Shown here: positions 6,914-48,619 of the stretch, one piece after another
Layout: the number at the start of each line of letters is the position of its first letter
Position numbering within the stretch: the first letter of the stretch is position 1
Virus record (IMG/VR): IMGVR_UViG_3300003279_000006
Location: 1 to 56,978 of that record
DNA from: a virus
Lineage: Duplodnaviria; Caudoviricetes
Reading direction: 5' to 3' (one strand)
Length of the DNA stretch: 56,978 bases
Notes under the pieces: model-generated
Told to the model about the DNA's origin: nothing
What the model saw: the letters and a program-made list of their open reading frames with translations, nothing else
The model's database searches: none
Position numbers and translations under genes: made by a program

Positions 6914-7192
6914 GTGCTGGTTCTAGCAAAGAATTACCAGATGGGGTATCAGAAGGTTCTTGAGCTGGGAGTTTCGCCCAGAACTCGAATCGTCACGCCA
7001 GGACAAGAGGACAGAATCCGGGGGCTTGCTCTGGAAAGTGAACTGATCGAGGTGGCGGGTCGTCCGTGTCCGGAACTCGATCGGCTGGTTGAAGTTGCGC
7101 GCACACAGCGTGGAACGGTCCCAAACTATCCCTGGCCGGCAAGGTCGAAGCCAGGAAAAGCATCGAAGGAGTTTATCGAATGGAACTCATGA
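6914..7192 (+). CDS. hypothetical protein
   Basis: ORF in operon context. Confidence 0.55.
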   Translation: MLVLAKNYQMGYQKVLELGVSPRTRIVTPGQEDRIRGLALESELIEVAGRPCPELDRLVEVARTQRGTVPNYPWPARSKPGKASKEFIEWNS

Positions 7193-7377
7193 ATGCCCTG
7201 GCGGAAATCCCCGGCGTCGGCTGGATTCTGCCCTACGTCTCGTTGTTGATGGCACTGTCGAGTGTCCTCGCGACGATTATTCCACCGACCTCGGTCTGGT
7301 ATCGAGTGGTGAACGCTCTGGCCTCGAACGTCGGGCAGGCGCGGAATGCGGGTGATCCGAAGGTTAGTGGGAACTAG
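7180..7377 (+). CDS. small membrane protein, putative holin
   Basis: AAGGAG RBS; hydrophobic N-half, polar tail. Confidence 0.5.
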   Translation: MELMNALAEIPGVGWILPYVSLLMALSSVLATIIPPTSVWYRVVNALASNVGQARNAGDPKVSGN

Positions 7378-7388
7378 GAACCCCTGGA

Positions 7389-8030
7389 ATGTCCGACAAC
7401 CCCCTGGAAGCGGTCGATCAAGAGCTGGACGAACTCGACCACCTGATGGGCTTCGGCTCCGCCAGGGGCGGCCGCAAAGTGGCCAAGCCTCTGATGATTG
7501 AGGTCGTCAGGTCGTTGACTCAGGAGGACGTGCCGGCGCTGCTGGAGCCGTCCCCGGTGGGATCGCAGACCCCGACCATTGTGAGGCTTCGCCACCAGCA
7601 CCATATCCTGGCCCAAACACTGGCCGCTGGCCATTCGAACGAAGCGGCCAGTCTCATCACGGGGTATTCGATCAGCAGAATCAGCATCCTAAACGGTGAT
7701 CCGACGTTTCGGCAGCTGTTGGCGCATTATCAGGGGAATAAGGAGATCGCCTTTGTTGATCTGATTGATCGAATGAAGGCGCTGGGTCTGTCGACTCTGG
7801 AGGAATTGCAGTCCCGGCTGGATGATAATCCAGATGAGTGGACGAAGCGGGAGTTGATGGATTTGGCCGAGCTGCTGTTGGTCAAGGGAAAGAGCACTGG
7901 GATGGTCCCGATCAATGCACCGGTGCAGAATTCCATCTCGATCAGCTTTGTCTCGAGTCCGAATGCAGGAGAGTCTGGGCGAAGCCCAGACGGGCCGGTG
8001 ATTGAAGGAGTGGTGGCAGATGGCCGGTAG
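7389..8030 (+). CDS. HTH protein, putative terminase small subunit
   Basis: HHILAQTLAAGHSNEAASLITGYSISRISIL (HTH), helical middle, C-terminal beta strand ISISFV. Confidence 0.5.
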   Translation: MSDNPLEAVDQELDELDHLMGFGSARGGRKVAKPLMIEVVRSLTQEDVPALLEPSPVGSQTPTIVRLRHQHHILAQTLAAGHSNEAASLITGYSISRISILNGDPTFRQLLAHYQGNKEIAFVDLIDRMKALGLSTLEELQSRLDDNPDEWTKRELMDLAELLLVKGKSTGMVPINAPVQNSISISFVSSPNAGESGRSPDGPVIEGVVADGR

Positions 8031-37697: not shown

Positions 37698-38222
37698 TCA
37701 GTCGATTCCATTGTCCACCTCCTTGGCGACGGCGCGCCAGCCGTTCCACAATTCCGGCCCTAGATCGCACCACATCTCCTCTTTTGAGGAGAATTTACCC
37801 GGTGTCATTATTGAATAAAACTCCCACGCCACCCGCTTCGCTTCCGCATCCGGGTCTACCTTCGGCAGCGGCTGGGCAAGGCGGTGGGCTACGCGGGCGG
37901 CATCATTTCGCCGGATAAGCTCCGTGTTCCCAAATGCCTTACGCCACTGTTCCTCCGTCCACCCGTAGCACTGCGGCAACTCCACCTCTGCCGGCGCGCG
38001 GCGGAAGTGGCGGAGGGCGGCGAGGATTATATCCATCGTCGATAACAACTGAACGGTGTTCGGGTTGGTGTTATACCACGCGAGAATCTCCTCCCGCGTC
38101 GGCTCCGGGCCGCAGAGTAGGGCGCGGGCGCGGTCAGCGACGGCTATCCACACAGATTGAGCGTCAAGCGATCCCGGCGCCAACATCGCGGCCCTACGCA
38201 GTTCCTTCCACAACTCATTCAT
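37698..38222 (-). CDS. hypothetical protein
   Basis: AAGGAG RBS; MNELWKELRR.. Confidence 0.65.
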   Translation of the reverse strand: MNELWKELRRAAMLAPGSLDAQSVWIAVADRARALLCGPEPTREEILAWYNTNPNTVQLLSTMDIILAALRHFRRAPAEVELPQCYGWTEEQWRKAFGNTELIRRNDAARVAHRLAQPLPKVDPDAEAKRVAWEFYSIMTPGKFSSKEEMWCDLGPELWNGWRAVAKEVDNGID

Positions 38223-38502
38223 AGCCTTGCTCCTTGGCGTGGGTGAGGGCGGTGCGGGCGCCGTCGATAACATCTGCGATTGGACGCGCGGCATCGCCAT
38301 CAATTCGATCTGCGTGGTTTGTGATTACCAGCCACCATTTGCTGACATTCTTCAGCGCCCCCACCAGTTCCCGGATCAGCGTGTTCTGCGCTTCGAGGGT
38401 GGCGGCGGCTTCGGTGCAGGCGGAATATTCGTTGCACTCCTTGTTGCCGGTTGCTTTGTAACTCCATGCAATCTGTTTCAATTGCTTTACCAGGTCATCC
38501 AT
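38215..38502 (-). CDS. hypothetical protein
   Basis: MDDLVKQL..CTEAAATLE pattern typical of small phage accessory genes. Confidence 0.65.
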   Translation of the reverse strand: MDDLVKQLKQIAWSYKATGNKECNEYSACTEAAATLEAQNTLIRELVGALKNVSKWWLVITNHADRIDGDAARPIADVIDGARTALTHAKEQGYE

Positions 38503-39004
38503 TCCCTTCTTCCTTTTCCAGCGCGGCAAACACCGCCGCAAAACCGCAGAGAACAGCGCCGAAAACATTAAGACTGGACATAATCGGCAGTGTTGAATAA
38601 TGAAAAACGGCCAGCCCTGCGTTAACTGAGCTCAAATAAGCCTGTATGTATTTCCATTTCATAACTTCTCTTCCTTCTCCAGCGCGGCGATGGCGGCGGC
38701 GCCCAGACGTTCCCAGAAGTCGCCAGCCTTGAAATGCGGGCCATGCCGCCAATCAATGTGGATGTCGTGTTCATCCTTCAGGATGTCACGGATACGTAGT
38801 CCAACCGTCGCCCTCCAGCCGGGCGGGATTTCTTCAGGCATCTGGGTTCTCCTTCATCTTCACGTCCGCAACTTTCAGCAGGGCGGTGAGGGCGGCTTGT
38901 GCATCTAGGCACAAATCGGACTGCAAACGAAAGCCTAAACCGTGTCTGTGGCGCAGCGCCTTCTCCATCACCTCCACAGCTTTGCGGCGTTCGGCGGGGG
39001 TCAT
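38495..39004 (-). CDS. three small coupled ORFs (38495-38662 membrane, 38659-38841, 38834-39004)
   Basis: Overlapping start/stop codons with GGAG RBSs. Confidence 0.55.
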
Positions 39005-40218
39005 TCCAGCATTCCTTCCTGTCTTGGCAGTGGTTTGTAGGTCGTCGTCCCGGCGAAGCGTTCCATCAGCCCGGCCCGTTCCGCAATCTCGATCATCTTG
39101 ATGATCCGATCGGAGGGTATTCGTGCAGCCAGCCAACTGACAATCTCCTGCTCGCGGATCGGCATTTGCTTCCGCATTTGCCAGTGTGCAACCAGATAAT
39201 GATGAAGTTCTTCGAGGATCGCCGCGTCGGATTTCCCGATCATGGCTCGGAAAATATCCGGCATCAGTTGCTCAATCTGGATCAACCAGGTGATCGCCCT
39301 CTCCACGTCGATGAGTTCCACCTGCTCGAACGATCGACGAGAGATTGCGGAGACGATTGTGAGTTTGAGCGCGTGCAGCGTCCGGCGACGGACGTAGTGA
39401 ACAAGGCGAGAATGTGTCGGAGTTGGTGGACCCCCAGCGAGGTGCCACTGGCGTAGCCTCTCCCGGGCGGGCTCCGTCCAGGCAAGTTCCCCGTAGACCT
39501 CGGAGATTTCCCCCAATCGTTTCACGATGGCACTTCGTGCCTGGTCCGTTGCAGCGTTGTCGGCGAAAATATCTAGCAGGGGCGCATCCGAACAGTAGAC
39601 CATCAACATCCGGCTGGTAAGCCCCGTGCTCCAGGCTTCCTCCGGAAAGACGGACTTGAGCCAGCCAGGTTGGGCCCCACCCAGGATGTTGAGTTGAGCA
39701 TACTCGATTTCGACCTCCCGGACACTCCCGGTTCGCCTGCTCTCAGCATAAGGCGTATTCGGGTTGTTGTAGATTTTATTCAGCACCCCGATATACTCCA
39801 GATCGTAGGCGGGGAGCATAACACTGAACTCCTCCGCCGCGATCAGGAGGGAATGGTAAACCAGCGGGCCGGTGAGACCTTTCAGCAGTTTGTTCGTCTT
39901 CGCTCGGGCGAGGTTGTCGACCAGTGATGCCTTGGTCATCGAGTCGGGTGCGACTTTGAAGGCCTGGGAACGTGTGCTCGGACTTTGGGCCTCGTTCCAG
40001 AGCTCGCGAGCATCCTCAATCACTTGTTTGCCCACTCCAGGTGGGGCGACCAGCAAAGTGTAGAGGTTCGGAAATGTGACATTCCGCCCACTCCGCAGCC
40101 AGACCCTTCGCTCGCACGCCCCGGCGACCAGAGCAATTCCCGTCCAGAGCCGAAAGAGTTCTGGCGAAAGCGCCCCCTCGGTGAATGCCATGTAATCCTG
40201 GATGAAATCCTCGGACAC
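39001..40218 (-). CDS. DUF3987/YfjI-like P-loop ATPase (putative replicative helicase)
   Basis: PNLYTLLVAPPGVGK, AEEF, LNILGGAQP, GLTSR; C-terminal winged-helix-like region. Confidence 0.75.
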   Translation of the reverse strand: MSEDFIQDYMAFTEGALSPELFRLWTGIALVAGACERRVWLRSGRNVTFPNLYTLLVAPPGVGKQVIEDARELWNEAQSPSTRSQAFKVAPDSMTKASLVDNLARAKTNKLLKGLTGPLVYHSLLIAAEEFSVMLPAYDLEYIGVLNKIYNNPNTPYAESRRTGSVREVEIEYAQLNILGGAQPGWLKSVFPEEAWSTGLTSRMLMVYCSDAPLLDIFADNAATDQARSAIVKRLGEISEVYGELAWTEPARERLRQWHLAGGPPTPTHSRLVHYVRRRTLHALKLTIVSAISRRSFEQVELIDVERAITWLIQIEQLMPDIFRAMIGKSDAAILEELHHYLVAHWQMRKQMPIREQEIVSWLAARIPSDRIIKMIEIAERAGLMERFAGTTTYKPLPRQEGMLE

Positions 40219-40235
40219 GAAACGTGCGCTACCAT

Positions 40236-41765
40236 CTACTGACTAAATCCTATTCTCTGCAAGCCGGTTTTCCGGACTCGCGTGTCGGGGACTCGAAGGT
40301 TCCATTTCCGAAGCCCTTCTGGGTTCGTGACTGCACCGAACTTGTCTTTGCCGACGTAGCCCCAGTTCCAACCGATCTTGGCCTCACCAGGGACGACATA
40401 CCGGCGATTGCCGTGGCGGAGTTCGATCTTGAGAAGCTCAAGTGCTTGTTGAATAATGGTGTTTTCGTCGTCGGACTCACGGTATTGGAAGGTGATTGAG
40501 TCGAAAGTTTGAGCAAGCAGCTGGACCTGGGGCATCTTGTGCCAGACTCGCCACAGTCCCAGGTTCATCCGGTCGCCGGTCGTGGACTGAGGGAGAAAGG
40601 CAATTGCCTCTCGGAGTGTGGTATCGTCCCCAGGTCTGCCGAAGAAATGTCGCCGACGCCCGAAGGGTGTCACCAGCTGGTGAGTTGTCTGCAACTGCGT
40701 TGCGACCCATTGCCACCAGCGAGGGATGCACGGAAACGCGGCCTCGGGGCCTTTACAGTATCGGTATTGGAAATCCTCGGCCAGCTTGGGTGGAATTTTG
40801 AGAGAACGGGCCATCGTCCAGTGTTGGCCGTAGTAATTGCTGAGGTGGCTCCCCCGCTTTGCCATGTCCCGATAGCTAAAGTCCCGGTAGAACAACTGGT
40901 CCGCCATGGCACGTCGAGCCCGGGGATCCTCCGGCCAACCGAGTTCCTTCCAAATCAGCACCGCGTTGTTGGTGTGGAGGTCGCCGGACTCGCAAGAATC
41001 GAGGTAGGACCAGTCATCGAAGAGCATCCCACAGAAGAACCCAACGTCCCGGGCCTCGACCTGTTCCAGGTCGATGACGCAGAGTTTCCAGCCGGGGTCA
41101 GCCTCAAATATATAGCGAAGCGCCGGGGCGATGTTCTGGGCGTTCCCCCCGGTGCCGAAGGCATTCTGACTCGACGACGGCCTTCCCGTCTCGGTCCCGG
41201 CGATGTTGTAACTCGTTCGGAATCGGCCATCGGAGTCAATCTCCGTCTCCATCACGTCGAGTTGCTTCCCAATATCCCGAAGGGTGAGGATACTCGACGT
41301 GAACGGTCGGGCGAGCATGTATTGCTCGAGTTTCTCCAGGGCCTCTCGATTGGTCGAGACTCGGCGGACACCTTTCTGGGAGACCGTGACTTCCGGGAGT
41401 CGCATCGCTGAGTAGAAAAAATCTTTCAACTGTGCAGGGGACCTCGGATTCAGCCCCCGCCCCCAAACCGCAATGGCCATCTGATCCAGGCCACGTTGGA
41501 GCTTCCCCATCCGGGTGTGCAGCCCCGCTGCAGCATGGGCTCTCGCCCCCCTATTCACCAGAAACCCCCGCTGCATAATCTCCAGATACGGACCTTGCAG
41601 TGCCCGCTCGAAGGAGTAGATACTCGGCAGCTGGTTACCGATCTTGCCCAGTTCGTCTCTGACCTCCAGCGTAACCATGGAGTCCAGACCGCAGTAGACC
41701 TGCAACCCGATGTTGGAGGAGAAGACTGAGTCTTGGGTGATCTGGTCAGTTTGGACGTAGGGCAT
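40236..41765 (-). CDS. polA: family A DNA polymerase, C-terminal subunit (ExoIII plus polymerase domain)
   Basis: YCGLD; NPRSPAQL; GTETGRPSS; DLEQVEAR (A); RDMAKRGSHLSNY (B); TPFGRRR; QTFDS (C). Confidence 0.93.
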   Translation of the reverse strand: MPYVQTDQITQDSVFSSNIGLQVYCGLDSMVTLEVRDELGKIGNQLPSIYSFERALQGPYLEIMQRGFLVNRGARAHAAAGLHTRMGKLQRGLDQMAIAVWGRGLNPRSPAQLKDFFYSAMRLPEVTVSQKGVRRVSTNREALEKLEQYMLARPFTSSILTLRDIGKQLDVMETEIDSDGRFRTSYNIAGTETGRPSSSQNAFGTGGNAQNIAPALRYIFEADPGWKLCVIDLEQVEARDVGFFCGMLFDDWSYLDSCESGDLHTNNAVLIWKELGWPEDPRARRAMADQLFYRDFSYRDMAKRGSHLSNYYGQHWTMARSLKIPPKLAEDFQYRYCKGPEAAFPCIPRWWQWVATQLQTTHQLVTPFGRRRHFFGRPGDDTTLREAIAFLPQSTTGDRMNLGLWRVWHKMPQVQLLAQTFDSITFQYRESDDENTIIQQALELLKIELRHGNRRYVVPGEAKIGWNWGYVGKDKFGAVTNPEGLRKWNLRVPDTRVRKTGLQRIGFSQ

Positions 41766-41788
41766 TCGAGGGGCCTTCGGCTAGAAGT

Positions 41789-42178
41789 TCAGTCTTGGTT
41801 CCATGGTTTGAACGCGCGGAGCGCACTCGGGCGAAGCCGTTCCCAGTTTCCTCCGAAGCAAATCGCCCGGTCGTCGATGGTCAGGAAGGCCGGAGGCTTC
41901 TCGTTCGCGAACTCCCACTTGAAAGTCGTGCCGTGGGCAAGTCGGACTGGTGATGCCCACTTGGTTTCTTGCTCGGCAAGCCAGCGAGCCATGGCAGCAA
42001 TCCCTTCCGGGGTCTTGGACCGGCTTGAGTAGATGACCAGGCGGAACTGGGCTTCCGCCTCAAACGCCCATTCGAAAAATCCTGGTGTGACATCGTCATA
42101 GATCACTCCGTCCTGCCAACCTTTCGAGTAACGATGGATGACCCCGTCGAAGTCCAGGCATAGAATCGGCTTGTTCAT
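41789..42178 (-). CDS. HAD-superfamily phosphatase
   Basis: [21 protein letters not shown]. Confidence 0.85.
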
Positions 42179-42423
42179 TGTTTGATTTCCCTGCAAAGCA
42201 CCGGGCCGCGAGAACGGCCTGGAATGCTGGATTGAATTTTCATCCGGGCAGTGACACAGGCATCCAGGGACGTGAAACGTCCCTGCTCCTCCCATGCGAA
42301 GCATGCCCGTTCGTAGGCGATCATGGGCTCGGAGCCTAGGCACACCCCGAGGACGAGTTCAAAGATCAACTTGGCGGTCCTCCCATCCAGTTGGACAAAG
42401 TCAACACCAGGGAGACCCACCAT
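42175..42423 (-). CDS. hypothetical protein
   Basis: ATG start; stop overlaps the HAD start. Confidence 0.45.
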
Positions 42424-42502
42424 TTGAGAATTTCGAGCCCAAACCAGCCGACGAAAGTTCCCCAGACAAAGAATAGAATGTTCGTCAGGATTGGAAATTT
42501 TC

Positions 42503-43420
42503 TCACAGGTCCGCTTCCCCCCTAAAGCCCTTGAACACCGGATGCCTGGGCAGGTCCTTCACCCCAGCGGGGAGATACTTCACTACCACGGTTCGGCCAA
42601 CGAGTTTGGCTCGGGAAGCCCAGAATTCGGCCCGTTGGGCCGAGGTAAATCCGGTTCCAATCTGGAAGCGCTCCCCTGGGAACGGACTGTTGTCCAGGCC
42701 AATGACTGTCAGGGCCCCCATCACCCCGGATGGGGTCTGGTTGGCCTGGTGGCTTGAGCGGGTTGTCAGCCCTAGTTCCGACACCGTCTTCTCGTTGTCG
42801 TTGTGCATCAGCTCGATCATCCCAACGATCTTGGCCTCGAAATCCGCGAACCTCTTGACCTTGACCATCCCCTGCTCCCGCCACGTCGAGCGATTTTGCT
42901 TATACCCCCCGGATGGGGAACGGAGAATCAGTCCTTCATAACCAAAGCCAATCTTGGCCTCTTCCTCGGCTTCCAGCTGGATTGGATTAATAATCTTGGA
43001 TTGCGGCAGCACCCGGACTCGAATCCCCGCTGCGCCAAAGTCCATGCCAAACAAACTTAGGTTCCGGACCTCGAACTGGGCTCCGCCCTGGTCCCAGCGG
43101 TCAAAAACCAGATAAGTAAAGTCCGGTTCTCCGTCATGGGACATCAGGCCACTTACCGACCGAGTATAACAGTCCCCCGCCGTGGGTTCCCCGATGACCA
43201 GTTCCCCGTCCAGACCATTCAGGACTTTCGCATGCTGTTCGAAGAACCTCTGCACGGAGCGATTTGGAATCAGTTTCATCGTTCGGCTTCGCGCCCGGCC
43301 GTTCATTGCCAAGCAGCGAAGCCCGTCGATCTTCGGCGAAGCCCAAACCGGGAAGCGAAGCTCCGCCACTGGTCCCATCTGGGCTGCCAGCATTGGCCGG
43401 AACGGACGAAGCGGGTCCAT
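42503..43420 (-). CDS. minimal ATP-dependent DNA ligase
   Basis: SPKIDGLR, LDGEL, VFD, YEGLILR, KVKRF, IGTGFT, PRHPVF. Confidence 0.95.
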   Translation of the reverse strand: MDPLRPFRPMLAAQMGPVAELRFPVWASPKIDGLRCLAMNGRARSRTMKLIPNRSVQRFFEQHAKVLNGLDGELVIGEPTAGDCYTRSVSGLMSHDGEPDFTYLVFDRWDQGGAQFEVRNLSLFGMDFGAAGIRVRVLPQSKIINPIQLEAEEEAKIGFGYEGLILRSPSGGYKQNRSTWREQGMVKVKRFADFEAKIVGMIELMHNDNEKTVSELGLTTRSSHQANQTPSGVMGALTVIGLDNSPFPGERFQIGTGFTSAQRAEFWASRAKLVGRTVVVKYLPAGVKDLPRHPVFKGFRGEADL

Positions 43421-43818
43421 CAGTATTTCTTCCCGCCGAGCGCAGCCCGGACTGCATGGGTGTGATCGGCCCGGCGGGCATTATACTCCATCTTCTCTCG
43501 AAACGCCCCGGCGAGGTCCAGACCCAGGCCACCTGCAAAGTCGAACAGGCGGATCAAACAGTCCGCGATTTCGACCTCGACTCCGGGACGATGCGGCAGA
43601 TGATCGTCCATCTTCCCCTTCCGATGGGCTTCCATGGCTTCGGCCAGCTCGCTCACCGAAAGCATCAGAAGTTCCCCGACGTTCCGATGGATCGGTGCGC
43701 CCGTGTGAATATCCTGCCACCACTTCATATTCGCCTGGTGACAGACATTGGTCAGCACACGTATGAAGCCCTCGATAGAGGCTGGGTCGTAGTGGGTGGT
43801 TGTGGGCTGCTGCTCCAT
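43420..43818 (-). CDS. MazG-like nucleotide pyrophosphohydrolase
   Basis: SELAEAMEA..EVEIADCLIRLFD..KMEYN. Confidence 0.88.
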   Translation of the reverse strand: MEQQPTTTHYDPASIEGFIRVLTNVCHQANMKWWQDIHTGAPIHRNVGELLMLSVSELAEAMEAHRKGKMDDHLPHRPGVEVEIADCLIRLFDFAGGLGLDLAGAFREKMEYNARRADHTHAVRAALGGKKY

Positions 43819-43820
43819 GG

Positions 43821-44114
43821 TCAGACTTCCTTCTGCTGAAGTTCAAGTGCTTTCACGGCTTCGACTACCAGTTCCAGCCGTGACTCCCGCTCGGCCAGCT
43901 GCACCAGCAGGAACATCTTGGCCACATCGCTGGAGGACAGTCCAATCTCGTGGCCCGTATGGGCGGAGAGGTAGGCTTCCCAGAGTTGGGAAATCCGGAT
44001 ATACTGGGACTCGAAGTCCGGACTCATTGCCAGCTTCGCCCTGGAAAGACAGTATTCCGGCCCGGACTCTTCGGGAAGTTCCGTCGTGCGCTGGCGGTTC
44101 GTTTGCTTTGCCAT
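43821..44114 (-). CDS. DUF6378-like protein
   Basis: RISQLWEAYL..DVAKMFLL pattern. Confidence 0.55.
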   Translation of the reverse strand: MAKQTNRQRTTELPEESGPEYCLSRAKLAMSPDFESQYIRISQLWEAYLSAHTGHEIGLSSSDVAKMFLLVQLAERESRLELVVEAVKALELQQKEV

Positions 44115-44142
44115 CTTCAGTCTCTTTCCTGTTGTCGTTGAC

Positions 44143-44562
44143 TCAGAGTTTCATCATCAAGGCTTTGAAGAGTATCCTGGCGGAGTCCAAGTCTGGGACT
44201 CGGGAGACCAGCGGGTGGTATTGCCAGGTCCCGAAGTCCGGGTGTTCCCCGACTACGACCACTCGCTGCCGCAGGGCCAAGGCCATCCCCGCCTCGACCA
44301 GGGCGCCACGGAGCTTGTCCTCGGGCTCCGCATAAACCAGCACGGCATCTGCCGATCGGATGTCCGCCAGGTCGTGTTCCCAGAACACACTGGCGAAAGC
44401 CGGCTCATCCGGGACGGTCCCGACATGGAGAGTCGGCCACCGAGCCGTGAAGTGGATTTCCGGCCACTCGAGACGAAGCCTCTTCCAGAGATCAGCATGG
44501 GCGATCTTACTCGCCCCGTAGACCGAGTATTTATCCTCCCGTTTCAGCAGCGCCATGGTCAC
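44143..44562 (-). CDS. nucleoside 2-deoxyribosyltransferase / dNMP N-hydrolase-like protein
   Basis: YGAS; DLADIRSADAVLV; GALVEAGMALA. Confidence 0.8.
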   Translation of the reverse strand: MTMALLKREDKYSVYGASKIAHADLWKRLRLEWPEIHFTARWPTLHVGTVPDEPAFASVFWEHDLADIRSADAVLVYAEPEDKLRGALVEAGMALALRQRVVVVGEHPDFGTWQYHPLVSRVPDLDSARILFKALMMKL

Positions 44563-45722
44563 TCATCCTTCTTTACTGTGTCAGCCTTCGGCCGACGCAT
44601 TAGTTTCCAACTGGCTTCGTTCGTATAGATGGAACCGAGGAACCCCAGCCCCTTCTGCATTTCCGGAAAAAACGAGTGATGCAGCAGCATGGTGTCCTCG
44701 ACACAGCGGGTTGGGAAAATCCCCATCGAGGTGAGATACTGAAGATCGTAGATGAAATTCTGCCCGACCTTCGGACAATCCAGGGTTAACATGGTCTTGA
44801 CTGCTGACCAAGCCCGCAGCTCGATTTCGTCCGTCGGCCAGTAGGACCCGGTCGGATTGTCCAGGTCCACAAACGGAATAACAATGGCTTCGGCAACCGA
44901 GGCGGCAAAACTAATACACTTAATCATCCCTTGCCCAGTCTCAATGTCCGCAGCCAGAAGTGCAGGTGGCCGACGAAGCCACCGTTCCTCCCATTCGAGC
45001 ACCTCATCCAGAGTCGGGTTGACCAGCACTCGCCGGGCGGGTCTACGAATCTCCGGATATTCTGCCTCCCGGCTCGCCTTGATCAAATCCGCCACGACGA
45101 TCGGACGCCAGGACCACTGGCGCATCACCCCGGCGGGATGGTATGTCGGCAGGACTTTGAACTTCCGGCCGGAAGGTCCGAAGGGCCTGGACTCCGCCAC
45201 CGCCCCCCTGATCGACCCGATATTCGTCGCGTGGAGAAGTGCCCAGCAGGCCGTGTTCCCCATCGCGACGATTAGGTTCGGCGACAGTTGCAGGATTTCT
45301 TCCTCCAATCGGGTTAGTTCTGGCAGAAACTCGTCCCGGAGATAGCGTCCCCGTTGGATCGCTGGCAGGGCGCCTGCGGCGCTCCCGACTTCGGTGCGCT
45401 TTGAACTGATGTGTTCGATATTATTGCTGGGCGGGCGAAATGCCAGGACGTTGGTCATTCCAATCCCTGCGGCAGCAAGCCACTCGGAGCGATGTCGAAT
45501 CCAGGCGTTGTCGTATTTGAACATCGAGACGGCTTCGCCATGAAGCTCCGGGGCGATCCCACTCATAGCCTCTCCCAGCATAAGCCACAGTTCCCTCCCG
45601 GAATACCCGACGAAAGGCTGTCGGGCCTGGGCTTCGCTCTCGCCCCAGGCTTCCCCGACCAGGAGAATCTTCGGTGACTCCGGCCCGGCATAGGCCGCGA
45701 ATGCTGGCAATGCCTGGTGCAT
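44559..45722 (-). CDS. family-4-like uracil-DNA glycosylase fused to a partial 3'-5' exonuclease (N-terminal polymerase subunit)
   Basis: VGEAWGESE..PFVG, TNV, TYHPA; then ADIET (ExoI), GQNFIYD (ExoII), DTMLLHH. Confidence 0.88.
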   Translation of the reverse strand: MHQALPAFAAYAGPESPKILLVGEAWGESEAQARQPFVGYSGRELWLMLGEAMSGIAPELHGEAVSMFKYDNAWIRHRSEWLAAAGIGMTNVLAFRPPSNNIEHISSKRTEVGSAAGALPAIQRGRYLRDEFLPELTRLEEEILQLSPNLIVAMGNTACWALLHATNIGSIRGAVAESRPFGPSGRKFKVLPTYHPAGVMRQWSWRPIVVADLIKASREAEYPEIRRPARRVLVNPTLDEVLEWEERWLRRPPALLAADIETGQGMIKCISFAASVAEAIVIPFVDLDNPTGSYWPTDEIELRAWSAVKTMLTLDCPKVGQNFIYDLQYLTSMGIFPTRCVEDTMLLHHSFFPEMQKGLGFLGSIYTNEASWKLMRRPKADTVKKDE

Positions 45723-47197
45723 CAGGAAGGGTTCCGGGCCAGCGCTTTGGAACCTGCCCGCAGGGCACGGGCGCTTCGCAACAACTGACGTGCCGTCCCA
45801 ACAGTGGTTTCGTCCACATCCATGCCGAGGATGGACTTGCATCCGAGTTCCTCCGCCGCGCGCAGGGCCGAGCCCGCTCCGCAGGTCGGGTCGAGCAGCC
45901 TGGTGTTTTCGTCGATGAGCATGGAGAGGAAGTGCTTCAGCACTGGTTCAGGTTTCGCACTTGGATGGAAGCGTTTATCCGTCGGGGCTGCGTAGGCATC
46001 CGCCACGACCTTGACGATGTTCCTGCTCCCGCGAGTCGCGAACAGTGCGGTCTCGTAGATATGCCGGGGATGACGCCTTGCATCCGAGACGATCCCGGCA
46101 TTGTCGGACTTGAGCCAGACCAGCGGGAACGGGTAGAAGACCAGGCTCGGGGCCAGCCTCTTGAACAGGTCCATTGTGATCTCCCGGTTCCGGTCCGAAT
46201 ACCAGAAGACCAGATGCCCACTGATAGACATGAAGCGATCGAGGTGGGTGCAGAAGCACTCCAGCAATCGGACGTAAACGTCCTTGGAGTCCGCATACTC
46301 CGTCTGCACGCCAGAGGCATTCCCCTGCGAGCCGTCGAATAGATTTACTCCGTAGGGGAAATCACAATGGACCAGATTGAACTTCAGTCCGGTGTATCTC
46401 GGCGCCCATTGGAGGAAGGACTCGTGGAGGATGGAGTTGGCGGAGTTGGGGATGATTGGGGGTCGAGAGGGGACGTTGCCCGCTCCGATCGGGACTCGAT
46501 TGGACGGAGGGGTTTCAGCGATTTCACCCGCTTCGCCCTCGGGGGTTTCCCCATCCAAGAGGTCCGACACTTCAGCCGAGGTCCCTTCTTCCTCCCCGAC
46601 CTCGGCCGTCGGCTCTTCTTCGGCTTCACCCTCCAGGCCGAGTAGGGCATTCAGGGCGTCGCCCTGCGACCGCTGGTCCCGGCGAACCAGGGTGTTGTAG
46701 GCTTCCTTGAAAGTATCGGCCTTCGCGATGCGCTCTTCCCCCATTGCACTGTTGACCTTCAAGTGCATGGATATTGAACTCCGCGTAAGCCCGATGGCAT
46801 CACCAGTTTCTTCCATGGTCCATTCCGAGTCTTGGACCAAATACAGGGCATGAATCTTCCCCACACTCCGGGTAATATCCTGCCACTCGAGATCGCTCCG
46901 CTTGATGTTCTCTTCGAGTTCGATTAGCTGAAGTTCGATCGGGGTGAGAGACTCGATGAACCGCACCGGGATGTCGGGCAGGCCCAGCTCTTTACATGCC
47001 GTCCACCTGCGTTCCCCGGCCCGGAGCCGGTAGGGTGGGGATGCCAGGTCTCGTTCCACGATAATCGGCTGGAGAACACCCCTTGCGGCGATGGACTCGA
47101 TCAGTCCTTTGGTCGAAATCACTCGACGTTGTCTCTCATCCCGCTCAACAAAAATCTGGTCAAGTGGAAGGCGAGCAAACTCGTCTGTTATTGGCAT
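45722..47197 (-). CDS. ParB-like domain plus beta-class amino (N6A/N4C) DNA methyltransferase
   Basis: GVLQPIIV..AGERRW..EENIKRSDL; acidic linker; CDFPYG, HPSAKP, LDPTCGAGS. Confidence 0.88.
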   Translation of the reverse strand: MPITDEFARLPLDQIFVERDERQRRVISTKGLIESIAARGVLQPIIVERDLASPPYRLRAGERRWTACKELGLPDIPVRFIESLTPIELQLIELEENIKRSDLEWQDITRSVGKIHALYLVQDSEWTMEETGDAIGLTRSSISMHLKVNSAMGEERIAKADTFKEAYNTLVRRDQRSQGDALNALLGLEGEAEEEPTAEVGEEEGTSAEVSDLLDGETPEGEAGEIAETPPSNRVPIGAGNVPSRPPIIPNSANSILHESFLQWAPRYTGLKFNLVHCDFPYGVNLFDGSQGNASGVQTEYADSKDVYVRLLECFCTHLDRFMSISGHLVFWYSDRNREITMDLFKRLAPSLVFYPFPLVWLKSDNAGIVSDARRHPRHIYETALFATRGSRNIVKVVADAYAAPTDKRFHPSAKPEPVLKHFLSMLIDENTRLLDPTCGAGSALRAAEELGCKSILGMDVDETTVGTARQLLRSARALRAGSKALARNPS

Positions 47198-47235
47198 GGG
47201 ACGTTTCCGGAGCGAGTGGTTGCGAGGACAAGTCT

Positions 47236-47264
47236 GCTGGGAGGGGGTTGGGTTCCCTCCCAGC
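47236..47264 (-). terminator. hairpin after the SSB-like gene
   Basis: GCTGGGAGGG-N9-CCCTCCCAGC 10-bp stem. Confidence 0.55.
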
Positions 47265-47282
47265 TTAGTCTTTGAGCCGGCC

Positions 47283-47711
47283 TCAGCCTGCGGCGCCGAT
47301 GGCCCCGACCTGATTGCCGATCTCGTTGTTCTGCTGGTTCAGATACTGCTGAACCTCGATCGTGACCTGGGCTCCGATCATGTTCGGGAGGACCTCCTCG
47401 TAGGTCTTCCCGGACATATCCACGCCGCAGTCCGAAATCAGCTTGTCCAAGCGCCAGAGCGCGTCGTCCGTGATGAAGAAGTCCCGGCGCAGCTGCCGCT
47501 TCGGCAAGTCAATGTCGGCCTTGTCTTCCTCCTGGACATTCGGCCCCCAGCCCAGCAGGCCCAGATGGAACCGGACGTAGGGCGTCTTGTTCTTGTTCTG
47601 GTCGCCGAGCTCATAGCTCTTGATGACCCCGTGATAGTTATCGGCCGGGAGCGCCGGGGGACGCTTGGCTTCGCCAGCAGGTTTCTTGAGCAGAGAAGAG
47701 AAGTCAACCAT
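47283..47711 (-). CDS. DUF669-like ssDNA-binding protein
   Basis: PPALPADNYHGVI..FFITDDALWRL; follows the AAA ATPase. Confidence 0.65.
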   Translation of the reverse strand: MVDFSSLLKKPAGEAKRPPALPADNYHGVIKSYELGDQNKNKTPYVRFHLGLLGWGPNVQEEDKADIDLPKRQLRRDFFITDDALWRLDKLISDCGVDMSGKTYEEVLPNMIGAQVTIEVQQYLNQQNNEIGNQVGAIGAAG

Positions 47712-47782
47712 TTCGATTGATCCTTGAGTTGCAAGTGGGCAGGATGCCCGAGATATCGGCCACTTGGCCGAACTGGTGGAGA

Positions 47783-48619
47783 CTAGCCTGGAGTTGGGGC
47801 GTCCGCCCCACCCATACGGACGGCGGCGAAATACTCGGCAAGGCCAGTCTCGATATCATAGGACGGTTTGACCGCCAGGGGATTGGTGTTTTTGAGCTCG
47901 ATTACGTTCGAGGTTTGGGTGAGGATTTTGCGCTTGGCGTTGGTCCCACTCCCGACCGTCGCGGCCATCAGCACGGTGTTGAAATACCGGCCGACTTTGG
48001 GAGGAAGGGCCTTCCCTAGGGTGTTCGGATACCCCCGCTGGGGGGCGTTCTCCTCCCCGATGTAGGTGATATGACAGTTCACGATGACATTACACTTAAT
48101 CCCGTCGTCGTAGAGCATCTGAAGCAGGGACTCAATCATCTGCTGGCCGGTATACCAATCGGACTGATGGGGCTGCTGGCCCAGGCGGGCGTTCACGGAC
48201 AAGACGAAATTGAGTGCCCCGGTCGAGAGCATGGTGAGGGAGTCCAGCACCAGAACGTCGTTGGGTCCCCAACTGGCCACCGGCCCCAAATCCTCGTCCC
48301 CAGACTTCCAGCTGGAAAGCATCCCGACCGTCCGTTGCCAGACACTGGCCTTGCTCGGGATCAGCCTCCCGTTCACGTTCCTCATCGGATCGGTGATGGT
48401 CTCGAACGAGACTCGATCAATCGCGTCTGGTTTGTATTTCGATCCCGGCGCCATCAGGACGTTCTTCAGCACGTCCAGGCCATTGTCCAGGTCGAGGACC
48501 CGAACATTATACCCGGCGTTGGCCAGGCTCGCCAGTGCCCCGGATTTTCCGGAGCCGGAGTCTCCGACTAGGAGCATCTTGGTCGTCTGGGCGGATTGGT
48601 GAGAAGTGAGTTTGGCCAC
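47783..48619 (-). CDS. AAA_24 / Sak4-like ATPase (recombinase)
   Basis: LLVGDSGSGKS, LDLDNG, VLVLDSLT, NCH. Confidence 0.8.
   Translation of the reverse strand: MAKLTSHQSAQTTKMLLVGDSGSGKSGALASLANAGYNVRVLDLDNGLDVLKNVLMAPGSKYKPDAIDRVSFETITDPMRNVNGRLIPSKASVWQRTVGMLSSWKSGDEDLGPVASWGPNDVLVLDSLTMLSTGALNFVLSVNARLGQQPHQSDWYTGQQMIESLLQMLYDDGIKCNVIVNCHITYIGEENAPQRGYPNTLGKALPPKVGRYFNTVLMAATVGSGTNAKRKILTQTSNVIELKNTNPLAVKPSYDIETGLAEYFAAVRMGGADAPTPG

Follow-up and report, generated by a model that had tools for sequence, protein, structure and literature searches.

Several phages encode the exonuclease and polymerase parts of a family A DNA polymerase in separate genes. The S-SBP1-like group of T7-like cyanophages is described by Czernecki et al. 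(2023; PMC10201439) as the first in which this was seen, and a report covering LUZ24-like phages speaks of a polymerase "part I" and "part II" (PMC3890496). Further split family A polymerases have appeared in print from cyanophage metagenome-assembled genomes (MAGs; bioRxiv 10.1101/325100) and from OM43 phages (PMC10580990). Polymerases fused to a UDG (uracil-DNA glycosylase) domain are also known, with structures, and the passages that treat them describe all of them as single chains (PMC10201439, PMC13697223). The word "split" in Kazlauskas and Venclovas (2011; PMC3201878) refers, where that text uses it, to PCNA and not to PolA. Here we compare with these systems a locus on the minus strand of the virus record IMGVR_UViG_3300003279_000006 from IMG/VR, all 56,978 bases of which we call the window. 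Two genes of this locus, the N-half (44559-45722) and the C-half (40236-41765), very probably encode a heterodimeric UDG-exonuclease-polymerase (UDG-Exo-Pol) of family A that arose by gene fission and whose proofreading site would be composed of residues from both chains.

Anatomy of the two halves and position of the break

The N-half encodes 387 amino acids (aa) comprising a UDG-like domain and the first two thirds of a 3'-5' exonuclease domain, and the C-half encodes 509 aa comprising the last third of the exonuclease domain, with ExoIII, and the entire polymerase domain. DEDDy exonucleases are recognized by the motifs ExoI (D-x-E), ExoII (N-x3-D) and ExoIII (Y-x3-D). All three are present across the two halves, with their catalytic positions invariant: ExoI as DIET (N-half residues 259-262; 44937-44948), ExoII as GQNFIYD (N-half residues 320-326; 44745-44765), and ExoIII as YCGLD (C-half residues 24-28; 41682-41696). 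In an alignment of 40 N-halves reaching down to 40% identity, D259, E261, N322, and D326 do not vary, nor do T262 and Q321; in an alignment of 40 C-halves with identities as low as 42%, Y24, L27, and D28 are equally constant, as are the polymerase residues D232, K303, Y311, and D422. The presence of invariant residues on both sides of the break suggests that exonuclease chemistry is still under selection in both halves. The first-pass annotation, made by reading the DNA without database searches, had described the N-half as a UDG followed by ExoI and ExoII that ends before ExoIII, and the C-half as opening with ExoIII and continuing as the polymerase domain; the coordinates and open reading frames (ORFs) of both genes agree with that account, and both genes lie on the minus strand. 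Direct reading of the N-half finds no Y-x3-D of its own after ExoII, and the chain ends in IYTNEASWKLMRRPKADTVKKDE followed by TGA. The exonuclease domain is not one continuous polypeptide, and its ExoIII is carried by a second gene product encoded 2793 nucleotides (nt) away.

A single PHROG polymerase profile, phrog_17, covers both genes, its positions 549-804 being matched by the N-half and 809-1234 by the C-half. Fused UDG-Exo-Pol relatives of 779-826 aa were found in Microcystis phage Mel-JY34, Manatee Spring phage, and a Desulfofustis phage, in the same neighborhood of a ParB/methylase gene upstream and a DUF3987 gene downstream. Both halves align end to end to fused homologues, with the break falling between GQNFxYD and YNxxD. 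Of the 173 positions in the Pfam exonuclease model PF01612, matches extend as far as 164-170 in three of three fused relatives but only as far as 127-128 in two of two split N-halves, and a profile of the N-half matches the Klenow fragment solely within chain residues 15-122. These alignments place the break inside the exonuclease domain, between ExoII and ExoIII. ExoIII itself was mapped by way of PF01612 and the fused relatives; in the PDB, phmmer with C-half residues 1-100 as the query hit nothing but, by chance, an insect taste receptor.

The C-half is a family A polymerase by its match to Pfam DNA_pol_A (PF00476; residues 83-440, E 5.4e-23, 82 bits against a cut-off of 34.3) and by matches to Taq and Klentaq structures (E 1e-11). 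The catalytic residues of this family are an Asp in motif A, a Lys and a Tyr in motif B, and an Asp in motif C, and all were found: motif A as VIDLEQVEARD (D232, aligned to Taq motif A; 41046-41078), motif B as RDMAKRGSHLSNYYG (K303 and Y311, together with an equally invariant H307; 40827-40871), and motif C as LAQTFDSI (D422; 40494-40517). Motif C reads FDS in the window, YDS in the consensus of the split clade, and HDS in fused relatives, the His beside the catalytic Asp being replaced throughout the split clade. A ribosome-binding site, GAAGG, lies 9-13 nt before the ATG of the C-half. In-frame insertions of about 285-290 aa were seen inside the C-halves of the relatives P0081, P0100, P0117, L037 (L037:8922-9776), and L038 (at about 7110-8000), at three conserved sites: after the SCE of DSCE/SGDLH, within motif B, with GHG on one side and SNY on the other, and behind the GTG in front of NxQN. 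All of the insertions have Cys at the start and GN at the end, with Ser or Thr next. We call them intein-like after these ends, because no intein or endonuclease family was matched by the L037 insertion of about 285 aa (PDB, NCBIfam) or by P0081, P0100, and P0117 (Pfam).

The UDG-like domain occupies approximately residues 10-222 of the N-half (45057-45695) and matches the Pfam UDG model (E 2.7e-20, 73.3 bits against a cut-off of 24.3) as well as family 4 UDG structures in the PDB; the UDG-fused polymerase structure 9qhs is also among the structure matches of the N-half profile search. Family 4 enzymes carry the motifs GE(A/G)PG (motif A) and HP(S/A) (motif B) and four Cys that hold an Fe-S cluster. 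The window has GEAWGESE (45633-45656) and YHPAG (45129-45143) and a single Cys in this domain; GEAWG, in which a Trp replaces the Pro, and YHPAG are both nearly invariant in the split clade. Scores fall below the family 4 cut-offs (55 bits against 125 for NCBIfam TIGR00758, 49 against 250 for NF040953), and among UDG models only the broad Pfam superfamily model is passed. An insertion of about 30 residues within the domain (N-half residues ~54-86; 45465-45563) is absent from fused relatives.

The start of the N-half overlaps the stop of the upstream ParB/methylase gene at a TGATG junction. A longer N-half reading frame extending back to 45842 finds no support among homologues, whose first Met aligns at 45722. 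At its other end, the C-terminal tail WKLMRRPKADTVKKDE (44562-44609) includes W372, K373, K384, D386, and E387, which are invariant or nearly so, and its last codons, AAG AAG GAT GAG TGA, double as the Shine-Dalgarno sequence and stop context of the next gene. A 26-nt motif, on the minus strand AGAAGGAnGnnTGACCATGG, spans this junction (44547-44572) and recurs at another (43809-43834) with 81% identity, in the order Shine-Dalgarno sequence, stop, CC, ATG. The N-half's conserved K-K-D-E end thus also provides the ribosome-binding site for the gene that follows.

Distribution of the split and the genes between the halves

Scans returned 16 viral contigs and 15 genome or MAG contigs, with both halves in 15 and 13 of them, respectively; the other three loci end before the N-half. 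With the cultured Caulobacter phage Kuura added, this gave 29 loci, of which 27 are distinct (L015, L016, and L021 are near-copies). The polymerase is split at the identical point in all 29, and in all 29, as had been noted for the window, each half has its own start and stop. The first-pass annotation was correct about the split architecture, which is common to a clade and not singular to this genome. Measured from the N-half stop to the C-half start, the gap in these loci ranges from -1 nt (L029) to 1629 nt (L008), and the 2793 nt of the window is the largest seen. In L029 (L029:2400-2480, on a MAG contig labelled Terriglobia) the halves abut, with stop and start overlapping as TGATG and no cargo between them, so the fission exists without any intervening gene. 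Kuura is the best phage match, at 39-41% identity. Its N-half is Kuura_029 ("hypothetical protein"), followed by two small genes and Kuura_026 ("DNA polymerase"). The passages on polymerases in the Kuura paper mention solely the identification of a DNA polymerase (PMC9959647).

Protein searches in which 8000 candidates were scored for each half gave, at E <= 1e-10, 2780 proteins related to the C-half and 2270 related to the N-half. In the top 120 for the C-half, 117 proteins have lengths of 473-546 aa and three have an internal insertion; the best 120 N-half relatives measure 331-495 aa. The longer relatives, 80 in number, are all fused UDG-Exo-Pol proteins with identities of at most 40%. A tree of 65 rows (22 split and 43 fused, with alternate entries of the 80 fused matches among the 43; LG+G4, quick search) puts the 22 split rows on one side of a branch with a long stem of 0.81 and a Shimodaira-Hasegawa-like approximate likelihood ratio test value of 100, so that a single change of state suffices to explain them.

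The closest relative on a genome contig, at 68% identity in the C-half, is L025, on a 4.7-Mb contig from an Actinomycetota MAG (CAVTRT010000003.1), where the locus lies within about 47 kb of the contig end. If this is a real prophage, it hints at Actinomycetota as the host group. The contigs L024-L038 also include sequences of 40-52 kb that carry the replication module and are binned in Patescibacteria, Saccharibacteria, Acidobacteria, Bdellovibrio, and Dehalococcoidia; these are most likely phage contigs mis-binned into those MAGs.

In the window, the distance of about 2.8 kb and the six intervening ORFs given in the first-pass annotation were recovered, with a measured gap of 2793 nt and one 46-aa ORF that is uncertain as a gene. 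Family matches, some of them weak, were obtained for five of the six, all on the minus strand. Directly after the N-half comes a nucleoside 2-deoxyribosyltransferase-like gene (44143-44562, 139 aa; Pfam Nuc_deoxyrib_tr 8e-6, below the cut-off of that model), followed by a gene of unassigned function (43821-44114, 97 aa), which has a weak match to DUF6378 (0.0039) and none in PHROG. A MazG-like nucleotide pyrophosphatase (43420-43818, 132 aa) is recognized by phrog_5658 (1.7e-51) and has no Pfam match, and an ATP-dependent DNA ligase (42503-43420, 305 aa) by Pfam DNA_ligase_OB_2 (1.6e-11) and phrog_114 (6.1e-49). The uncertain 46-aa ORF (42366-42506) is hydrophobic, was taken from the ORF list, and has no Pfam or PHROG match. 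The last gene, 41789-42343, encodes a HAD-like phosphatase (Pfam HAD_SAK_2 6.5e-4, residues 60-126). Its true start is likely at 42178 (MNKPIL...), since its PHROG matches begin at residues 53-57. With that start, about 187 nt of non-coding DNA (42179-42365) would lie inside the gap; no promoter-like site was found there, and the predicted fold of 42170-42375 is unremarkable (z-score -1.77).

These six intervening genes are variable cargo. A tblastn search of related loci found no match to the ligase, MazG-like, and HAD-like genes or to the two small ORFs of the window within about 8 kb of the polymerase, and when 39000-47300 was searched for repeats on either side of the cargo, as a sign of a single insert, just short, imperfect pairs turned up. 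Among the relatives examined, the gap is most often occupied by the nucleoside-deoxyribosyltransferase superfamily: seven loci (L006, L009, L013, L015, L017, L018, and L019) have DUF1937, DUF7768, or DUF4406 genes there, L013 such a gene alone, and tblastn placed a gene of the window type in three more (L010, L012, and L026). In the Pfam scan of gap ORFs from loci other than L024-L038, nine of ten chosen for adjoining a half matched this superfamily (DUF1937, DUF7768, DUF4406, or Nuc_deoxyrib_tr) and one matched TSCPD; ten further gap ORFs included two HNH_3 endonucleases directly after the N-half (L008:6298-6897 and L017:7310-7684) and one helix-turn-helix protein. Small gap genes with a TSCPD domain, which is known from ribonucleotide reductase-related proteins, were seen in two relatives (L014:7624-8004 and L008:6897-7256). 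The HNH_3 genes beside the N-half hint at a break point that serves, or once served, as an endonuclease target. The fission could be a simple one like that of L029, with insertions arriving later, or it could equally be the outcome of an insertion (a homing endonuclease, for instance) whose genes later turned over; an insertion need not have caused it, because L029 has no gap.

The window is a near-complete tailed-phage genome (CheckV 99% complete, the metagenome-derived record being complete or nearly so), with terminase, portal, and tail fiber genes on the plus strand and a replication module on the minus strand, among whose products are a helicase, a PD-(D/E)XK exonuclease, a Sak4-like annealing protein, a ParB/methylase fusion, and a DUF3987 primase-like protein. 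The fusion gene upstream of the N-half (minus strand, 45722-47197) combines a ParB N-terminal domain (Pfam ParB_N 4.5e-11) with an N6/N4 DNA methylase (N6_N4_Mtase 3.5e-9) and precedes the N-half in most related loci. Downstream of the C-half, the primase/helicase-like neighbor (minus strand, 39001-40218; Pfam DUF3987 5.2e-11, phrog_14296 DNA primase 6.8e-37) is syntenic across all relatives. A thymidylate-synthase-like gene was sought because SP15-like UDG-PolAs are linked to thymidine-modified genomes, and Pfam found none among the ten further replication-module ORFs scanned.

Separate expression, modelled assembly, and alternative explanations

The genes of the module are tightly packed, with stops and starts overlapping or close, and the two halves are likely co-transcribed. 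Over 38500-48000, a sigma-70 scan gave no promoter-like site on the minus strand, and the one terminator-like site on that strand is weak and lies inside the N-half coding region; promoter and terminator totals on both strands are not above those of shuffled controls.

The full C-half and N-half residues 222-387 were modelled as a complex, with a 40-row alignment for each, in three runs and with three controls. The interaction prediction score from aligned errors (ipSAE) was 0.86 in three of three runs, against 0.00 for the best of the three controls, with a partner predicted local distance difference test (pLDDT) of 83-84 and contact agreement between runs of at least 95%. Of 80 solved complexes 58 reach the mark used by the modelling tool, and of 110 mismatched pairs 2 do so; these rates apply here only roughly, as our own alignments were used. 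In the model, C-half residues 1-7, 16-40, and 42-65 contact N-half residues 226-235, 255-262, 268-281, 319-329, and 340-354. The ExoIII segment (C-half 16-40) is predicted to touch N-half residues 255, 257-262, and 319-325, which take in ExoI and ExoII, and C-half residue 25 to meet D259. The modelled interface resembles a restored single-chain exonuclease fold, a likeness that is no proof of binding. Catalysis by DEDDy exonucleases uses two metals and needs residues from all three Exo motifs, so an active site in this system would require both chains. The two-subunit UDG-Exo/Pol enzyme with a site formed in trans that the first-pass annotation proposed fits this predicted complex, the conservation on both sides of the break, the split in 29 of 29 loci, and the lack of intron or intein signs.

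We propose that gene fission divided a UDG-Exo-Pol replicative polymerase within the loop that links ExoII to ExoIII. The resulting genes, each with its own start, stop, and ribosome-binding context, would be translated separately, probably from a single replication-operon transcript, and fragment complementation would then reunite their products. The incomplete exonuclease fold of the N-half, with D259, E261, and D326, is predicted to receive the opening ~65 residues of the C-half, which bring ExoIII with Y24 and D28; docking would complete both the fold and the two-metal DEDDy active site, and the polymerase domain would then work as in single-chain enzymes. The fission appears to be old, being common to a clade whose members diverge to ~37-40% identity. 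The intergenic site would later have taken up varying cargo, such as nucleoside-deoxyribosyltransferase-like genes and HNH endonucleases, and in the phage of the window also the ligase, the MazG-like pyrophosphatase, and the HAD-like phosphatase.

Several points weigh against this proposal. For every member of the clade, binding and exonuclease activity are statements of a model, and the model pass may reflect only the solved single-chain family A polymerases that have this fold. Co-transcription in the window is deduced; the public sequencing runs listed include none of RNA, and two DNA runs with small shares (0.07 and 0.06). The tree kept N-terminal columns that are empty in all split rows, and it took 40 of the 80 fused matches and 8 of 119 other listed C-half relatives. 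At the motif C site where family A polymerases usually have His, the split proteins have Phe or Tyr. In L025 the halves are broken further, the N-half over three frames and the C-half over two, as would follow from either a decaying prophage or assembly indel errors; decayed or mis-assembled copies of the split polymerase do exist.

The best surviving alternative, which we nevertheless regard as improbable, is that the halves are independent products, the N-half a UDG-like or DNA-binding factor with a vestigial exonuclease piece and the C-half a proofreading-deficient polymerase with a structural remnant. The Joint Genome Institute (JGI) label for N-halves is simply uracil-DNA glycosylase, the binding of the halves comes from a model, and a precedent may be found in CCPol-MP, which according to the text treating it keeps three exonuclease helices only and leans on another protein (PMC10201439). 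Vestiges would not be expected to keep catalytic residues invariant across 40 sequences on both sides of the break, however, and the model joins the two pieces with high confidence where controls score 0.00; an incomplete DnaQ-like fold is also unlikely to be stable alone.

Less probable still is that the halves are joined after transcription or translation, by splicing of an intron that holds the six genes, by the trans action of a split intein (a "fractured gene"), or by ribosomal bypass or frameshifting. Introns and inteins are common in phage polymerase genes, the intein-like-ended insertions described above lie inside C-halves of relatives, HNH endonuclease genes occupy the gaps of L008 and L017, and one report (PMC2677866) describes fractured genes in which an endonuclease gene has split inteins on its two sides. 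No signal of an intron, intein, or frameshift was found in the window, in keeping with the first-pass annotation, which had seen neither intron hallmarks nor intein termini. A permissive Rfam cmscan of 38000-48000 on both strands, with E up to 1, gave no matches. Pfam identified no intein family; the C-half begins MPYVQT, and no Cys, Ser, or Thr is conserved at the junction. Intein halves take up at least ~100 and ~35 residues. Only ~14 residues at the end of the N-half and ~23 at the start of the C-half fail to align to fused relatives, which leaves no room for them. Separate starts and stops for each half in 29 of 29 loci, gaps that contain from none to six genes of ordinary protein families, and a TGATG overlap in L029 without a visible slippery site also speak against joining. 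A reading of the split as lacking functional meaning, the result of misassembly or of recent gene inactivation, has a practically negligible chance, for although the window comes from a metagenome-derived record and frame breaks occur in L025, this is already contradicted by the identical break point in 29 of 29 loci, an isolated and sequenced phage among them, by the split size of the best 120 relatives of each half save three C-halves with an internal insertion, and by the invariant catalytic residues.

If the composite polymerase is real, it would be a natural case of an active site divided between two genes across a large phage clade, going beyond division at a domain boundary. C-halves look proofreading-less and N-halves are labelled otherwise, and surveys of viral polymerases could miscount proofreading capacity. 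For engineering, the loop before ExoIII would offer a place to split family A polymerases for fragment complementation that nature has already validated. For genome evolution, the fission point would be a recurrent insertion site, with gaps of -1 to 2793 nt, beside a gene that collects intein-like insertions, and so a compact system in which to follow the shaping of essential phage genes by mobile elements; tests could be made in Kuura, which is in culture. It is possible, though we think it rather unlikely, that the arrangement ties exonuclease (and UDG-like) activity to the supply of a separate subunit, making fidelity tunable by the ratio or timing of the two products, and that the intergenic site, left permanently open within an essential gene, serves as a protected dock whose replication-linked cargo (deoxyribosyltransferase-like genes, a ligase, MazG, or homing endonucleases) is co-expressed and hard to lose. 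Any dependence of fidelity on the subunit ratio is speculation.

Comparison with known systems

The locus of the window shares separate exonuclease and polymerase genes with the podovirus S-SBP1, for which association of the products was likewise deduced, from a predicted structure that superposes on an uninterrupted relative. S-SBP1 is cut at the boundary between the exonuclease and polymerase domains, whereas the window is cut between ExoII and ExoIII. As presented in the passage on that phage, the S-SBP1 genes overlap, arose by a 1-nt frameshift, and lack a UDG domain and cargo. LUZ24-like Pseudomonas phages also have the polymerase in pieces, with gp25 ("DNA polymerase exonuclease subunit") and gp34 ("DNA polymerase part II") separated by about eight unrelated genes that include an endonuclease; unlike the window, LUZ24 has no UDG domain, and its polymerase part is itself broken once more, with an endonuclease VII gene at that place. 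S-SBP1 gp15, the exonuclease product of 171 aa, holds all three Exo motifs (DLE, HNIIGYD, and YCIQD), and so does LUZ24 gp25, of 169 aa (DLE, HNILDYD, and YCLQD), which places the cuts of both at the domain boundary.

The order of domains (UDG, 3'-5' exonuclease, polymerase) is that of the fused UDG-PolAs, including N4-like, SPO1-like, and SP15-like enzymes and those of Mel-JY34, the Desulfofustis phage, and P0243, and the ParB/methylase and DUF3987 neighbors are shared with the nearest fused relatives found. Unlike the window, the fused UDG-PolAs are single polypeptides, of 765-1100 aa, the nearest of which is 40% identical to the N-half.

Division of an essential enzyme between two genes is also said to occur in the NrdA of Aeromonas phage Aeh1, where, in work attributed to Friedrich and colleagues in 2007, insertion of a homing endonuclease reportedly left an enzyme encoded by two genes that is active as a complex. 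The window resembles that case in having an enzyme cut in two genes, and HNH endonucleases lie directly after the N-half in two related loci; it differs in that its own gap holds no endonuclease and that L029 has no gap at all. CCPol-MP, from staphylococcal SCC elements, likewise possesses the last exonuclease helices only and is predicted to lean on a second protein (PMC10201439). Its missing exonuclease part is, by the account given there, absent from the locus, and its partner is an unrelated beta-barrel. In the window, an upstream gene supplies that part, and its catalytic residues are intact.

Nothing found in the literature searched, which excluded subscription journals and supplements, describes a polymerase whose cut separates ExoII from ExoIII or a UDG-PolA in two pieces. 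A split family A polymerase is already a known kind of arrangement. Compared with S-SBP1 and LUZ24, what is new in the window and its relatives is a cut through the proofreading site, in a polymerase of the UDG-fused type, at a locus of variable cargo.

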